Positions 10,520 to 27,283 of a stretch of DNA of 35,919 nucleotides are shown here, piece by piece (position 1 is the stretch's first letter; each line of letters opens with the position of its first letter). The position numbers and the translations under genes were made by a program. The DNA comes from Escherichia coli (lineage in GTDB: Bacteria; Pseudomonadota; Gammaproteobacteria; Enterobacterales; Enterobacteriaceae), in NCBI RefSeq assembly GCF_003334305.1, contig NZ_QOWS01000032.1. One strand, 5' to 3'. Below the pieces are notes generated by a model, which did no database searches, was not told where the DNA came from, and saw only the letters and a list, made by a program, of their open reading frames with translations.

Positions 10520-11800
10520 ATGAGCAGCAATAAAGAGTTAATGCAGCGCCGCAGTCAGGCAGTTCCTCGTGGCGTTGGGCAAATTCACCCGATTTTCGCT
10601 GACCGCGCGGAAAACTGCCGGGTGTGGGACGTTGAAGGCCGTGAGTATCTTGATTTCGCGGGCGGGATTGCGGTGCTCAATACCGGGCACCTGCATCCGA
10701 AGGTGGTTGCGGCGGTGGAAGCGCAGTTGAAAAAACTGTCGCACACCTGCTTCCAGGTGCTGGCCTACGAGCCGTATCTAGAGCTGTGCGAGATTATGAA
10801 TCAGAAGGTGCCAGGCGATTTCGCCAAGAAAACGCTGCTGGTTACGACCGGTTCCGAAGCGGTGGAAAACGCGGTGAAAATCGCCCGCGCCGCCACAAAA
10901 CGTAGCGGCACCATCGCTTTTAGCGGCGCGTACCACGGGCGCACGCATTACACGCTGGCGCTGACCGGCAAGGTGAATCCGTACTCTGCGGGCATGGGGC
11001 TGATGCCTGGGCACGTTTATCGCGCGCTTTATCCTTGCCCGCTGCACGGCATCAGTGAAGATGACGCTATCGCCAGCATTCACCGAATTTTTAAAAATGA
11101 CGCTGCGCCGGAAGATATCGCCGCCATCGTGATTGAACCGGTTCAGGGCGAAGGCGGTTTCTACGCCGCTACGCCTGCTTTTATGCAGCGTTTACGCGCG
11201 CTGTGTGACGAGCACGGGATCATGCTGATTGCCGATGAAGTGCAGAGCGGCGCGGGGCGTACCGGCACGCTGTTTGCGATGGAGCAGATGGGCGTTGCGC
11301 CGGATCTCACCACCTTTGCGAAATCCATCGCGGGCGGCTTCCCGCTGGCGGGTGTCACCGGGCGCGCGGAAGTGATGGATGCCGTCGCTCCAGGCGGGCT
11401 GGGCGGCACCTATGCCGGTAACCCGATTGCCTGCGTGGCGGCGCTGGAAGTGTTGAAGGTGTTCGAGCAGGAAAATCTGCTGCAAAAAGCCAACGATCTG
11501 GGGCAGAAGCTGAAAGATGGACTGCTGGCGATTGCCGAAAAACACCCGGAGATCGGCGACGTACGCGGGCTGGGAGCGATGATCGCCATCGAGCTGTTTG
11601 AAGATGGCGATCACAGCAAACCGGACGCAAAACTCACCGCCGGGATCGTGGCGCGCGCCCGCGATAAAGGCCTGATTCTTCTCTCCTGCGGCCCGTATTA
11701 CAACGTGCTGCGCATCCTTGTACCGCTCACCATTGAAGACGCTCAGATCCGTCAGGGTCTGGAGATCATCAACCAGTGTTTTGCTGAGGCGAAGCAGTAG
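10520..11800 (+). CDS. gabT: 4-aminobutyrate aminotransferase (PLP-dependent class III), 426 aa
   Basis: Class III aminotransferase features (LIADEVQSGAGRTG, with the PLP lysine in TFAKSIAGG). Follows gabD by 13 nt. Confidence 0.95.
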   Translation: MSSNKELMQRRSQAVPRGVGQIHPIFADRAENCRVWDVEGREYLDFAGGIAVLNTGHLHPKVVAAVEAQLKKLSHTCFQVLAYEPYLELCEIMNQKVPGDFAKKTLLVTTGSEAVENAVKIARAATKRSGTIAFSGAYHGRTHYTLALTGKVNPYSAGMGLMPGHVYRALYPCPLHGISEDDAIASIHRIFKNDAAPEDIAAIVIEPVQGEGGFYAATPAFMQRLRALCDEHGIMLIADEVQSGAGRTGTLFAMEQMGVAPDLTTFAKSIAGGFPLAGVTGRAEVMDAVAPGGLGGTYAGNPIACVAALEVLKVFEQENLLQKANDLGQKLKDGLLAIAEKHPEIGDVRGLGAMIAIELFEDGDHSKPDAKLTAGIVARARDKGLILLSCGPYYNVLRILVPLTIEDAQIRQGLEIINQCFAEAKQ

Positions 11801-11811
11801 CACCGCACCAT

Positions 11812-11948
11812 GCCGGAGGCGACGCTGCGCGTCTTGTCCGGCCTACGGTGATCCAGGTCGGATAAGGCGTTTACGCCGCATCCGACAATCTGTACGTGAA
11901 CAGGAATAAATCTATGTCGGCCGGATAAGGCGGAGCCGCTCTCCGGCA
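11812..11948. repeat. REP/BIME cluster (about three REP units)
   Basis: Three imperfect palindromic units of the GCCGGATAAGGCG...GCATCCGAC type: gccggaggcgacgctgcgcgtcttgtccggcctac, ggtcggataaggcgtttacgccgcatccgaca and tcggccggataaggcggagccgctctccggc, in the gabT-gabP spacer. Confidence 0.6.
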
Positions 11949-12036
11949 AAAAGAATCAATAACAATTAAACGCGTGACCCGACGCGGGAAATGTCGGGGC
12001 GCTCTCCCAAGTGACACACTTTCGAGAGGATTCAGG

Positions 12037-13437
12037 ATGGGGCAATCATCGCAACCACATGAGTTAGGCGGCGGGCTGAAATCACGCCACGTCACCATGT
12101 TGTCTATTGCCGGTGTTATCGGCGCAAGTCTGTTTGTCGGTTCAAGCGTCGCCATCGCCGAAGCGGGCCCGGCGGTATTACTGGCCTATCTGTTCGCCGG
12201 ATTACTGGTGGTTATGATTATGCGGATGTTGGCGGAAATGGCAGTTGCCACGCCCGATACCGGTTCGTTTTCCACCTATGCCGACAAGGCAATTGGCCGC
12301 TGGGCGGGTTATACCATCGGCTGGCTGTACTGGTGGTTTTGGGTACTGGTTATCCCGCTGGAAGCCAACATCGCCGCTATGATCCTGCACTCGTGGGTTC
12401 CAGGCATTCCCATCTGGTTATTTTCCCTCGTCATTACCCTCGCCTTAACTGGCAGTAATTTATTAAGCGTTAAAAACTACGGCGAATTTGAGTTCTGGCT
12501 GGCGCTGTGCAAAGTCATCGCTATCCTGGCCTTTATTTTCCTTGGTGCAGTCGCAATTAGCGGTTTTTACCCTTATGCCGAAGTGAGCGGGATCTCAAGA
12601 TTGTGGGATAGCGGCGGCTTTATGCCCAACGGTTTCGGTGCGGTATTAAGCGCGATGTTGATCACCATGTTCTCGTTTATGGGCGCAGAAATTGTCACCA
12701 TTGCCGCCGCGGAATCCGACACGCCGGAAAAACATATTGTCCGCGCCACCAACTCGGTTATCTGGCGTATTTCTATCTTCTATTTGTGCTCTATTTTTGT
12801 CGTAGTGGCGTTAATACCGTGGAATATGCCGGGGCTGAAAGCCGTTGGTTCTTATCGCTCGGTACTGGAATTGCTCAATATTCCCCATGCGAAATTAATC
12901 ATGGACTGCGTGATATTACTTTCCGTAACCAGTTGCCTGAACTCGGCGCTGTATACCGCCTCAAGGATGCTCTACTCCTTAAGCCGTCGCGGAGATGCGC
13001 CTGCGGTAATGGGTAAAATCAACCGCAGTAAAACCCCGTACGTGGCGGTGTTACTCTCCACCGGCGCGGCATTCTTAACGGTGGTGGTGAACTATTACGC
13101 GCCTGCGAAGGTATTTAAATTTCTGATCGACAGCTCCGGCGCTATCGCCCTGCTGGTTTATTTAGTCATCGCCGTTTCACAGTTGCGGATGCGCAAAATT
13201 CTGCGAGCAGAAGGAAGCGAAATTCGCTTGCGAATGTGGCTTTATCCGTGGCTCACCTGGCTGGTCATCGGCTTTATTACCTTTGTGTTGGTAGTGATGC
13301 TATTCCGTCCGGCGCAACAGTTAGAAGTGATCTCCACCGGCTTATTAGCGATAGGGATTATCTGTACCGTGCCGATTATGGCGCGCTGGAAAAAGCTGGT
13401 ATTGTGGCAAAAAACACCCGTTCATAATACGCGCTGA
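12037..13437 (+). CDS. gabP: GABA permease (APC family), 466 aa
   Basis: Start chosen at ATG 12037 (MGQSSQPHELGGGLKSRHVTMLSIAG...) with AGGA Shine-Dalgarno at about 12027..12030. Multi-pass membrane protein of the amino acid permease type. The ORF track's extension from 11974 is rejected. Confidence 0.9.
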   Translation: MGQSSQPHELGGGLKSRHVTMLSIAGVIGASLFVGSSVAIAEAGPAVLLAYLFAGLLVVMIMRMLAEMAVATPDTGSFSTYADKAIGRWAGYTIGWLYWWFWVLVIPLEANIAAMILHSWVPGIPIWLFSLVITLALTGSNLLSVKNYGEFEFWLALCKVIAILAFIFLGAVAISGFYPYAEVSGISRLWDSGGFMPNGFGAVLSAMLITMFSFMGAEIVTIAAAESDTPEKHIVRATNSVIWRISIFYLCSIFVVVALIPWNMPGLKAVGSYRSVLELLNIPHAKLIMDCVILLSVTSCLNSALYTASRMLYSLSRRGDAPAVMGKINRSKTPYVAVLLSTGAAFLTVVVNYYAPAKVFKFLIDSSGAIALLVYLVIAVSQLRMRKILRAEGSEIRLRMWLYPWLTWLVIGFITFVLVVMLFRPAQQLEVISTGLLAIGIICTVPIMARWKKLVLWQKTPVHNTR

Positions 13438-13457
13438 TAATGATCAGGAGTCACACC

Positions 13458-14120
13458 ATGACCATTACGTCTCTGGATGGCTATCGCTGGCTGAAGAACG
13501 ATATTATTCGCGGTAATTTTCAACCGGATGAAAAATTACGAATGAGTTTGCTGACATCGCGTTATGCACTTGGCGTTGGGCCGTTACGGGAAGCTCTTTC
13601 GCAACTGGTGGCGGAACGGCTGGTCACGGTGGTGAATCAAAAAGGGTATCGGGTGGCGTCTATGTCAGAGCAGGAGCTGCTCGATATTTTCGACGCCCGC
13701 GCCAATATGGAAGCGATGCTGGTCAGTCTGGCGATTGCCCGCGGTGGCGATGAATGGGAGGCAGACGTTCTCGCAAAAGCGCATCTGCTGAGTAAGCTGG
13801 AAGCCTGTGACGCCAGCGAGAAAATGCTTGATGAGTGGGATCTGCGTCATCAGGCGTTTCATACAGCAATTGTGGCGGGCTGTGGTTCTCACTATTTGCT
13901 GCAAATGCGTGAACGGTTGTTTGATCTGGCGGCGCGCTATCGATTTATCTGGCTGCGGCGAACGGTGCTTTCGGTAGAAATGCTGGAGGATAAACACGAT
14001 CAGCACCAGACCCTGACTGCGGCGGTACTGGCGCGAGATACCGCGCGCGCCAGTGAGTTAATGCGCCAGCATTTACTGACGCCAATTCCCATTATCCAGC
14101 AGGCGATGGCTGGCAATTAA
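13458..14120 (+). CDS. csiR: GntR-family transcriptional repressor of the csiD-gab operon, 220 aa
   Basis: ATG 13458 with CAGGAG Shine-Dalgarno at 13445..13450. N-terminal winged helix-turn-helix and FadR-like C-terminal domain. Position immediately after gabP. Confidence 0.85.
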   Translation: MTITSLDGYRWLKNDIIRGNFQPDEKLRMSLLTSRYALGVGPLREALSQLVAERLVTVVNQKGYRVASMSEQELLDIFDARANMEAMLVSLAIARGGDEWEADVLAKAHLLSKLEACDASEKMLDEWDLRHQAFHTAIVAGCGSHYLLQMRERLFDLAARYRFIWLRRTVLSVEMLEDKHDQHQTLTAAVLARDTARASELMRQHLLTPIPIIQQAMAGN

Positions 14121-24914: not shown

Positions 24915-25907
24915 ATGCGACATAGCGTACTTTTTGCGACAGCGTTTGCCACGCTTATCTCTACACAAACTTTTGCTGCCGATCTGCCGGGCAAAGGTAT
25001 TACTGTAAATCCAGTTCAAAGCACCATCACCGAAGAAACCTTCCAGACGCTGCTGGTCAGCCGTGCGCTGGAGAAATTAGGCTATACCGTCAACAAACCC
25101 AGCGAAGTAGATTACAACGTTGGCTACACCTCGCTTGCTTCCGGCGATGCAACCTTCACCGCCGTGAACTGGACGCCACTGCATGACAACATGTACGAAG
25201 CTGCCGGTGGCGATAAGAAATTTTATCGTGAAGGGGTATTTGTTAACGGCGCGGCACAGGGTTACCTGATCGATAAGAAAACCGCCGACCAGTACAAAAT
25301 CACCAACATCGCACAACTGAAAGATCCGAAGATCGCCAAACTGTTCGATACCAACGGCGACGGAAAAGCGGATTTAACCGGTTGTAACCCTGGCTGGGGC
25401 TGCGAAGGTGCCATCAACCACCAGCTTGCCGCGTATGAACTGACCCATACCGTGACGCATAATCAGGGGAACTACGCGGCGATGATGGCCGACACCATCA
25501 GTCGCTACAAAGAGGGCAAACCGGTGTTTTACTACACCTGGACGCCGTACTGGGTGAGTAATGAGCTGAAGCCAGGGAAAGATGTGGTCTGGTTGCAGGT
25601 GCCGTTCTCCGCACTGCCGGGCGATAAAAACGCCGATACCAAACTGCCGAATGGTGCGAATTATGGCTTCCCGGTCAGCACCATGCATATCGTTGCCAAC
25701 AAAGCCTGGGCCGAGAAAAACCCGGCAGCAGCGAAACTGTTTGCCATTATGCAGTTGCCAGTGGCAGATATTAACGCCCAGAACGCCATTATGCATGACG
25801 GCAAAGCCTCAGAAGGCGATATTCAGGGCCATGTTGATGGCTGGATCAAAGCCCACCAGCAGCAGTTCGATGGCTGGGTGAATGAGGCGCTGGCAGCGCA
25901 GAAGTAA
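24915..25907 (+). CDS. proX: Glycine betaine/proline periplasmic substrate-binding protein, 330 aa
   Basis: ATG 24915 with AAAGGAA Shine-Dalgarno. Signal peptide [21 protein letters not shown] followed by [10 protein letters not shown]... The GTG at 24873 used by the ORF track is rejected. Confidence 0.9.
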
Positions 25908-25916
25908 TTTTTATTC

Positions 25917-25998
25917 GGGCGGATAAGGCGTTTTTGCCTCATCCGCCGCTCTGTACACAATGCCTGATGCGACGCTGACGCGTCTTATCATGCCTACA
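25917..25998. repeat. REP/BIME element downstream of proX (two REP units)
   Basis: gggcggataaggcgtttttgcctcatccgcc and tgcctgatgcgacgctgacgcgtcttatcatgcctaca, imperfect palindromes of REP type. Confidence 0.55.
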
Positions 25999-26098
25999 AA
26001 CCACATCGCACATTTCAACAAGCTATCTTTCATCCCATATTCATCAACATCCGCTATTATTGATTTCCAGCTTAATCATCACCTGATGAACAAAAATA

Positions 26099-27283
26099 AT
26101 GACTAAACCTAATCATGAGCTTAGCCCGGCGCTGATCGTGCTGATGTCTATCGCCACCGGTCTGGCGGTCGCCAGTAACTATTACGCCCAGCCGCTACTC
26201 GACACCATCGCGCGTAACTTTTCCCTTTCCGCCAGTTCGGCAGGCTTTATTGTTACCGCCGCGCAATTGGGCTATGCAGCAGGTCTGCTGTTTCTTGTTC
26301 CCCTCGGTGATATGTTTGAACGCCGCCGCCTGATTGTCTCGATGACCTTACTGGCAGCGGGCGGTATGTTGATTACCGCCAGCAGTCAGTCGCTGGCGAT
26401 GATGCTCCTCGGTACGGCATTAACCGGTTTATTCTCTGTCGTGGCACAAATTCTGGTTCCGCTGGCAGCGACGCTGGCTTCACCGGATAAACGCGGCAAA
26501 GTGGTTGGCACCATTATGAGCGGTCTGCTGTTGGGGATATTGCTGGCACGAACCGTTGCCGGGTTACTGGCAAACCTCGGCGGCTGGCGCACCGTCTTTT
26601 GGGTTGCCTCGGTGTTAATGGCTCTGATGGCGCTAGCATTATGGCGTGGTCTGCCACAAATGAAATCAGAAACCCACCTCAACTACCCACAGTTGTTAGG
26701 TTCCGTTTTCAGCATGTTTATCAGCGATAAGATCCTGCGCACCCGCGCATTGCTGGGCTGCCTGACCTTTGCCAACTTCAGCATTCTCTGGACCTCAATG
26801 GCCTTTTTGCTTGCCGCTCCACCTTTTAACTACAGCGATGGTGTCATTGGTCTGTTTGGACTTGCGGGAGCTGCCGGAGCGTTGGGCGCTCGTCCGGCGG
26901 GCGGTTTTGCCGATAAGGGTAAATCGCACCACACCACAACTTTCGGTCTGCTGCTGCTATTACTTTCATGGCTGGCGATCTGGTTTGGTCACACTTCCGT
27001 ACTGGCGCTGATTATCGGCATCCTGGTGCTGGATCTCACCGTACAGGGCGTGCATATCACTAACCAGACGGTAATTTATCGAATACACCCTGATGCGCGT
27101 AATCGCCTGACCGCAGGTTACATGACCAGCTACTTTATTGGCGGTGCCGCCGGTTCGCTAATTTCAGCCTCAGCCTGGCAACATGGCGGTTGGGCTGGCG
27201 TTTGTCTGGCTGGCGCGACGATTGCCCTGGTTAACTTACTGGTCTGGTGGCGAGGTTTTCATCGTCAGGAAGCCGCAAATTAA
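26099..27283 (+). CDS. ygaY: MFS-family transporter, 394 aa, intact in this sequence
   Basis: Uninterrupted ORF with about 12 hydrophobic segments and MFS-like loop motifs (GDMFERRR). Confidence 0.75.
   Translation: MTKPNHELSPALIVLMSIATGLAVASNYYAQPLLDTIARNFSLSASSAGFIVTAAQLGYAAGLLFLVPLGDMFERRRLIVSMTLLAAGGMLITASSQSLAMMLLGTALTGLFSVVAQILVPLAATLASPDKRGKVVGTIMSGLLLGILLARTVAGLLANLGGWRTVFWVASVLMALMALALWRGLPQMKSETHLNYPQLLGSVFSMFISDKILRTRALLGCLTFANFSILWTSMAFLLAAPPFNYSDGVIGLFGLAGAAGALGARPAGGFADKGKSHHTTTFGLLLLLLSWLAIWFGHTSVLALIIGILVLDLTVQGVHITNQTVIYRIHPDARNRLTAGYMTSYFIGGAAGSLISASAWQHGGWAGVCLAGATIALVNLLVWWRGFHRQEAAN

Follow-up and report, generated by a model that had tools for sequence, protein, structure and literature searches.

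The DNA analysed here (the window, 35,919 nucleotides) is an Escherichia coli chromosomal segment carrying csiD-gabDTP-csiR and, further along, proVWX-ygaY. Five palindromic units of the REP family lie in two of its spacers, three between gabT and gabP (U1 to U3, 11811-11948) and two 3' of proX (U4 and U5, 25914-25997). The stop codon of gabT, TAG, occupies 11798-11800 and the gabP ATG stands at 12037, leaving a spacer of 236 nt; the TAA of proX occupies 25905-25907, with the start of the following gene at 26099. Compared with RefSeq E. coli, a 261-nt query from the first spacer matched the annotated gabT/gabP junction at up to 100% identity, and a 226-nt query from the second led to the junction between proX and a downstream MFS-transporter gene (ygaY). 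Both loci are extragenic, lying between annotated coding sequences, and the RefSeq feature table consulted for the gabT/gabP junction has the two CDSs as its only entries. No credible open reading frame runs over either spacer, and small-ORF genes were rejected in both, the small ORFs seen there being mechanical, made up of REP sequence. In a scan of the window with all Rfam models, matches to the REP model (naRNA4) were found at the gab and proX loci only. The same scan recovered the MicA sRNA (32592-32663, + strand, 83.9 bits) and three tRNA genes on the - strand (3549-3621, 35577-35650 and 35852-35919, the last cut by the window end); an RtT-like match on the - strand between two of the tRNAs (35714-35841) is sub-threshold, at 31 bits against a gathering score of 45.

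A REP is an imperfect palindrome of 30-40 nt, able to fold as a stem-loop, with a conserved GTAG 5' of its foot and conserved mismatches in its stem (PMC3333891; family definitions also in PMC8266576). When the 35,919 bases were scanned with the 17-mer half-consensus CGYCTTATCMGGCCTAC, allowing up to three mismatches, five matches were obtained, all at U1 to U5 and none elsewhere in the window, against 0.19 expected by chance; none of 100 shuffled controls reached five. A search of 5,426 complete E. coli genomes with the 85-nt proX pair found at least 37 places per genome in every one of the 5,426, the count being capped at 40 per record. A sequence-only reading of this DNA had called REP/BIME clusters at operon-internal and operon-end positions, with three units between gabT and gabP and two after proX, and its identification, counts and positions were all correct: its 11812-11948 opens on the first base of the U1 stem and closes on the last base of U3, and 25917..25998 matches U4 and U5. 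The search for REP consensus matches that it had proposed gave the significant result just described, and its view that such repeats explain hairpin-rich DNA for which no CDS accounts agrees with what is found, as the REPs do explain the non-coding structure and there is no credible ORF in their place. To that reading the present analysis adds the short distance from stop codon to first hairpin (10-11 nt), the decay of GTAG in three units and the orientation of U3, which is the same as that of U2.

The Rfam model, completed with the GTAG of published REPs, supplied y and z2 consensus sequences against which the units were typed. U1 (11811-11846, - strand, TGCCGGAGGCGACGCTGCGCGTCTTGTCCGGCCTAC) is a z2-type REP with one mismatch to the 17-mer. 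Its stem covers 11812-11842, and the CTAC at 11843-11846 on the + strand reads as an undamaged GTAG on the - strand; it is thus the inverted form (iREP) that appears in the gab mRNA, with ...GGCCUAC at its end. It is identical to z2 at 32 of 37 positions, versus 28 of 35 for y, is predicted to form a local hairpin of -20.3 kcal/mol and scores 24.6 bits against naRNA4 in a partial match that covers the z2 half. A linker of 6 nt (11847-11852, GGTGAT) joins it head-to-head to U2, and the spacing is identical where E. albertii and Escherichia sp. E1V33 have the pair in tandem. U2 (11853-11887, + strand, CCAGGTCGGATAAGGCGTTTACGCCGCATCCGACA) is a y-type REP (31/35 identity) in which GTAG has decayed to CCAG; its stem (11857-11886) contains an AA/GC internal bulge, its hairpin is predicted at -18.8 kcal/mol (z = -5.3), and it matches the y half of naRNA4 with 40.1 bits (E = 7e-6 within 401 nt). 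Beyond a 28-nt linker (11888-11915), which holds a small hairpin, CTGTACGTGAACAG, at 11890-11903, lies U3 (11916-11948, + strand, GTCGGCCGGATAAGGCGGAGCCGCTCTCCGGCA), a degenerate y-like REP with one mismatch to the 17-mer, 29/35 identity to y and a predicted hairpin of -16.3 kcal/mol. In this unit GTCG replaces GTAG, the loop is GGAG and the 3' arm is decayed.

Downstream of proX, U4 (25914-25948, + strand) is a y-like REP with TTCG for GTAG, three mismatches to the 17-mer and 27/35 identity to y. Its stem spans 25918-25947 (-21.2 kcal/mol, z = -4.5), and of its bulge there remains a 1x1 mismatch in this strain, which has GCCTCATCC where K-12 has GCCGCATCC. A tail-to-tail linker of about 12-13 nt (25949-25960) separates it from U5 (25961-25997, - strand), a z2-type REP with 34/37 identity to z2, one mismatch to the 17-mer and an intact GTAG (CTAC at 25994-25997 on the + strand); the U5 hairpin is predicted at -14.8 kcal/mol (z = -4.7). 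U4 and U5 form the first and second halves, respectively, of an naRNA4 match. U2, U3 and U4, which have no GTAG, are REP members decayed by descent rather than non-members, because GTAG is carried by the U2 orthologues of E. albertii, E1V33 and Escherichia sp. MOD1-EC7003 and by the U3 orthologues of Citrobacter.

Each of the five units folds as a single bulged hairpin (-14.8 to -21.2 kcal/mol), with internal loops predicted in U1, U2, U3 and U5. RNA folding of the gabT-gabP spacer, which the sequence-only reading had suggested as a check, gave -75.9 kcal/mol (z = -5.7), a stability reached by none of 200 shuffles; the region 3' of proX folds at -36 kcal/mol (z = -4.9). In the global fold of the gab spacer, U1 pairs with U3 over about 30 bp around the U2 hairpin, and this arrangement is more stable than three local hairpins (-75.9 versus -59.2 kcal/mol), as it is in the orthologues from K-12, E. 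whittamii and E. albertii. An alignment of six orthologous 143-nt gab clusters contains no double changes, and both folds are 97-99% paired in it, so that covariation does not discriminate between them.

Both clusters vary between strains and species, with copy numbers from zero to at least six. The U1-U2 pair is present once in the window, in K-12 and in E. whittamii, twice in E. albertii, three times in Escherichia sp. E1V33 and at least six times in Escherichia sp. MOD1-EC7003, and one divergent E. coli lineage retains about half a unit. The tandem arrays of E. albertii, E1V33 and MOD1-EC7003 have a period of about 90-95 nt, their loop and linker differ among copies, and the GTAG of U2 is intact in them. 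The proX-ygaY spacer (25908-26098 in the window) is likewise polymorphic among E. coli strains: the window and K-12 have one copy of the proX unit, strains FAHZZU6014 and 99-3165 have two in tandem with a 100-nt period, and FDAARGOS_1281 has none, carrying instead an unrelated REP-less spacer of 452 nt. U3 has another history. Judging from its sequence, it is an older unit, orthologous to the single REP found after gabT in several Citrobacter species: it shares with C. werkmanii, C. amalonaticus and C. youngae the core GGCGGAGCCGC and, downstream, CAATAACAAT, and the Citrobacter copies retain GTAG.

The gabT-gabP spacer of E. coli is in fact dimorphic over window positions 11801-11962, which were compared with positions 365-605 of the O26:H11 record. 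The REP allele is found in 4,091 of the 5,426 genomes, and a non-homologous REP-less allele of 310 nt in 1,304 (about 24%), among them O26:H11 and O111:H8 strains. The two alleles part abruptly, once directly behind the stop codon of gabT and again at CAATTAAACGCGTG. In its 5' part the REP-less allele looks like the short spacer, also free of REPs, of Citrobacter sp. R56, Awk4 and NCU1, and the remainder is an imperfect palindrome of about 170 nt that folds at -107 kcal/mol (z = -7.7). This palindrome has a G-rich core, GGGGAGAGGG...CCCTCTCCC, with about three occurrences per genome, and we take that core to resemble the 'box C' repeat. Searching the REP-less allele with Rfam returned only sub-threshold microRNA noise. 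Some Citrobacter gabT-gabP spacers have no large structure. As about a quarter of E. coli carry the REP-less spacer, the gab REP cluster is dispensable and cannot be required for the function of the operon.

Two further observations concern the same spacer. An element of about 57 nt in the gabP 5' leader (window 11968-12024) is almost invariant in Escherichia and part of Citrobacter and is kept in both spacer alleles. C. amalonaticus, C. koseri, C. portucalensis and a Klebsiella MAG lack it altogether, the difference being a clean indel between CAATAACAATAA and CGAGG. The element folds into a first hairpin with one compensatory pair (CCCGAC/GTCGGG to CCCGGC/GCCGGG) and a second in which CUCUC is paired to GAGAG in the Shine-Dalgarno region of gabP; it could serve to control translation or could be a small insertion. 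In addition, records labelled Pseudocitrobacter vendiensis and P. faecalis have gabT-gabP spacers nearly identical to E. coli alleles, one REP and one REP-less, a likeness that could reflect close relatedness, horizontal transfer or mislabelling.

The identity of U1 to U5 as REPs follows from the consensus matches, the Rfam model, the bulged palindromes, the extragenic location, the high copy number and the variation of that number among strains, and nothing was found to contradict it. They are ordinary copies of the long-known, high-copy REP/BIME repeats of E. coli, with nothing new about them; REP and BIME types, variation in copy number between strains and effects at the RNA level are textbook matter for this species, and the finding is one already known. 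The three REPs between gabT and gabP were reportedly described with the original gab sequence by Niegemann et al. in 1993, those after proX are said to have been described by Gowrishankar in 1989, and both clusters are presumably entered as numbered REP elements in the K-12 GenBank record. Our literature search found no paper tying gabT/gabP to REPs and no experiment on these particular copies; a paper on proVWX chromatin contained no REP data.

All five REPs are in DNA that is transcribed but not translated, U1 to U3 within the csiD-lhgO-gabDTP mRNA and U4 and U5 in the 3' UTR of proVWX, and published RNA 3' ends bear on what they may do there. The primary 3' end of proX in K-12 Term-seq data is at NC_000913.3 position 2808169 (Adams et al. 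2021, supplementary file 1, PMC7815308). Aligned by eye, this corresponds to window base 25962, which lies at the U5 foot, immediately beyond the linker and 15 nt after the U4 stem. Its place is consistent with a REP hairpin shielding the proVWX mRNA on the 3' side or fixing where that mRNA ends, and its distance of 15 nt past the hairpin, in sequence that is not U-rich, suggests processing or non-canonical termination. Neither a 3' end nor a Rho-termination region is entered for gabT-gabP in the K-12 Term-seq tables, in which the lhgO end and the DNA behind csiR do have weak 3' ends on the + strand (PMC7815308). A role as terminator or attenuator at gabT-gabP is thus unsupported and a barrier effect there unproven, although expression was low in the conditions used. 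The sequence-only reading had suggested that the palindromes can act as mRNA stabilizers or partial terminators, which holds in part at proX, where the K-12 3' end lies 15 nt past the first hairpin, and not at gabT-gabP, with neither a 3' end nor a Rho region there; none of the units has a U-tract. For these copies the suggestion would be a general property of the family extended to them by analogy.

Term-seq also touches the neighbouring csiR region (window about 13440-14120 and downstream). In K-12 a very abundant 3' end lies antisense to csiR, at 2796240 on the - strand, and a + strand 3' end at 2796391 follows shortly after csiR, within ygaU, a gene of the opposite strand (PMC7815308). The latter suggests read-through of the gab operon across csiR.

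Several other accounts of the palindromes have to be weighed. G+C-rich hairpins at operon-internal and operon-end sites might be intrinsic (Rho-independent) terminators, partial between gabT and gabP and terminating the operon after proX, where the primary K-12 3' end falls inside the BIME and no other terminator-like site was found on the + strand before ygaY. We regard this as highly improbable: no T/U run follows any of the units, a terminator scan of the + strand was empty at both loci (11700-12100 and 25800-26150), the proX end lies 15 nt beyond the hairpin in non-U-rich sequence, and the Term-seq tables have none at gabT-gabP. The 3' end after proX bears also on the idea that the proX pair, and perhaps the gab cluster, gives rise to a stand-alone sRNA of the naRNA4 type, which would bind HU and bridge cruciform DNA. 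The proX pair passes the gathering score of RF02564 (naRNA4, the REP325 unit), with 65.2 bits against 59.5 at 25917-25994 on the + strand, and naRNA4 is itself one y-linker-z2 unit of REP325, in a genome most of whose annotated REPs are transcribed (PMC4550694). The model, however, in effect fits any y+z2 BIME-2 unit, which makes the match one of family resemblance, not of function; the gab units stay below the gathering score at no more than 40 bits (the best, U2, at 40.1), a promoter scan found no promoter-like site in either spacer, and with its K-12 3' end between the two hairpins the dominant RNA would contain the y hairpin only. Such an sRNA is, in our estimation, very unlikely. The palindromes might even be operators for a regulator of gab or proU, such as CsiR, H-NS or IHF, since palindromic DNA in regulatory-looking spacers invites that reading and BIME-1 elements are known to carry IHF sites (PMC3333891). 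But they belong to a repeat found at at least 37 places per genome, they lie downstream of coding regions rather than at promoters, with no promoter-like site nearby in either spacer, and the IHF consensus WATCAANNNNTTR has no match with up to one mismatch in either spacer, the linkers included; we find this account scarcely credible.

The remaining alternative concerns the gab cluster only, which might be a locus-specific, selected RNA structure, with U1 paired to U3 around U2, serving as an RNase III-type processing site or as an insulator that uncouples gabP from gabDT, with the REPs as its raw material instead of bystanders. In its favour are the greater stability of the global fold over the local one (-75.9 and -59.2 kcal/mol) in the window and in K-12, E. 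whittamii and E. albertii, and the unrelated REP-less allele, equally placed and very stable (-107 kcal/mol, z = -7.7). Such pairing is open to any two inverted REPs, however, and co-transcriptional folding favours local hairpins; covariation is uninformative, copy number and content are free to vary among lineages, some Citrobacter spacers are without large structure, and the Term-seq tables contain no 3' or processing end at this place. A selected structure of this kind therefore seems improbable to us. A broader version, in which the gabT-gabP junction is selected for very stable RNA whatever its source, two unrelated alleles (about 75% and about 24%) being kept non-neutrally and either of them setting the GabT:GabP ratio by insulation or processing, is likewise unlikely.

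We hold with high confidence that both clusters are copies of y and z2 REPs, arranged as single BIME-2-type pairs together with an older solitary y unit at gab; their effects on RNA and DNA would be modulatory. Following what is known of the family, they would be palindromic repeats that are not autonomous and that owe their spread and amplification to TnpA_REP, the REP-associated Y1 transposase. In RNA, each unit would form a G+C-rich hairpin that blocks 3'-to-5' exonucleases, in keeping with the protection of upstream mRNA from 3' exonucleases by REPs that is cited in PMC3184786 and PMC12306157. The upstream message of gabT and of proX might then outlive the RNA downstream, and the mature proVWX mRNA would end just past its first REP.

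A second effect might be exerted on translation. The first stem begins 11 nt after the stop codon of gabT (TAG ending at 11800, stem from 11812) and 10 nt after that of proX (TAA ending at 25907, stem from 25918), and both first REPs fall within the class lying less than 16 nt from a stop codon. According to Liang, Rudd and Deutscher (2015), as summarised in PMC12306157, a REP less than 16 nt after the stop codon dampens translation; the class is marked by stalled ribosomes and a loss of the upstream protein that depends on tmRNA. Because it begins 10-11 nt after the stop codon, the first hairpin would be expected from the behaviour of the family to impede the terminating ribosome, and the output of GabT and ProX may be modestly lowered. 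At the level of DNA, gyrase is known to prefer the y units of BIME-2 (PMC6379681), and HU and naRNA take part in bridging (PMC4550694); by the same family likeness the y units would be potential targets of gyrase and HU. The gab and proX loci are absent from the supplements listing gyrase sites. All of these effects would be modulatory and not essential, because a quarter of E. coli have no REPs at gab and some strains have none at proX.

The value of recognizing these units is mostly one of annotation. It accounts for structured non-coding DNA, guards against the entry of spurious small ORFs or sRNA genes (the naRNA4 match being a family match only), and explains why strains differ in the length and content of both spacers. 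If the mechanisms established at the level of the family apply here, the REPs would trim the output of GabT and ProX and shape the 3' end of the proVWX mRNA; natural REP-less alleles show any such effect to be dispensable.

Among known systems, the closest is the E. coli REP family itself, whose hallmarks the units share: they are 33-37 nt long, are bulged imperfect palindromes, agree with the consensus at 27-34 of 35-37 positions, are extragenic and exist in high copy. They differ from typical members in the loss of GTAG from U2 (CCAG), U3 (GTCG) and U4 (TTCG), and in the 1x1 bulge of U4. Only REPs that bear GTAG and are bulged are bound and cleaved by TnpA_REP, which acts on single-stranded DNA (PMC3333891, PMC8266576). 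By analogy, U2, U3 and U4 are probably no longer substrates of TnpA_REP and would be fossils, and U1 and U5, the only two units on which activity is predicted, may still be mobilisable.

At the next level of organization, BIME-1 elements consist of z1+y with an L linker containing an IHF site, BIME-2 elements consist of z2+y with a short linker in tandem and variable number, and atypical BIMEs are chimeras (Ton-Hoang et al., PMC3333891). BIME-1 was rejected for both loci, as their linkers are without the IHF consensus and the partner units are z2-like. Each locus does have one inversely oriented z2+y pair with a short linker (U1/U2 and U4/U5), as in BIME-2, and other strains and species have tandem arrays of the same units at these two loci, repeating every 90-100 nt or so. 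In the window there is, in contrast, a single copy per locus, the gab pair being head-to-head and the proX pair tail-to-tail, and the gab locus has the extra y unit U3 in direct orientation to U2. From these arrangements both loci would be classed as a single-copy BIME-2 building block, and the gab cluster as a whole as atypical, because U3 is extra and has the same orientation as U2.

The comparison with naRNA4 and REP325 is closest for the proX pair, in which y, linker and z2 follow one another on the transcribed strand. Between yjdM and yjdN, REP325 forms an array of six units with demonstrated HU binding (PMC4550694), whereas proX has one unit, located in a 3' UTR, with the K-12 mRNA 3' end between its hairpins and a match at the level of the sequence model. 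The first hairpins at gabT and proX, 10-11 nt 3' of the stop codon, are placed like the nrdAB-type REPs, which lie less than 16 nt from a stop codon; no mRNA half-lives, tmRNA tagging or protein ratios for gabT/gabP or proX came up in the sources searched. The REP at malE-malF is a stabiliser within a polycistronic mRNA, and the gab cluster resembles REPs of this type in being intercistronic, between a gene for a soluble enzyme and a gene for a membrane permease.
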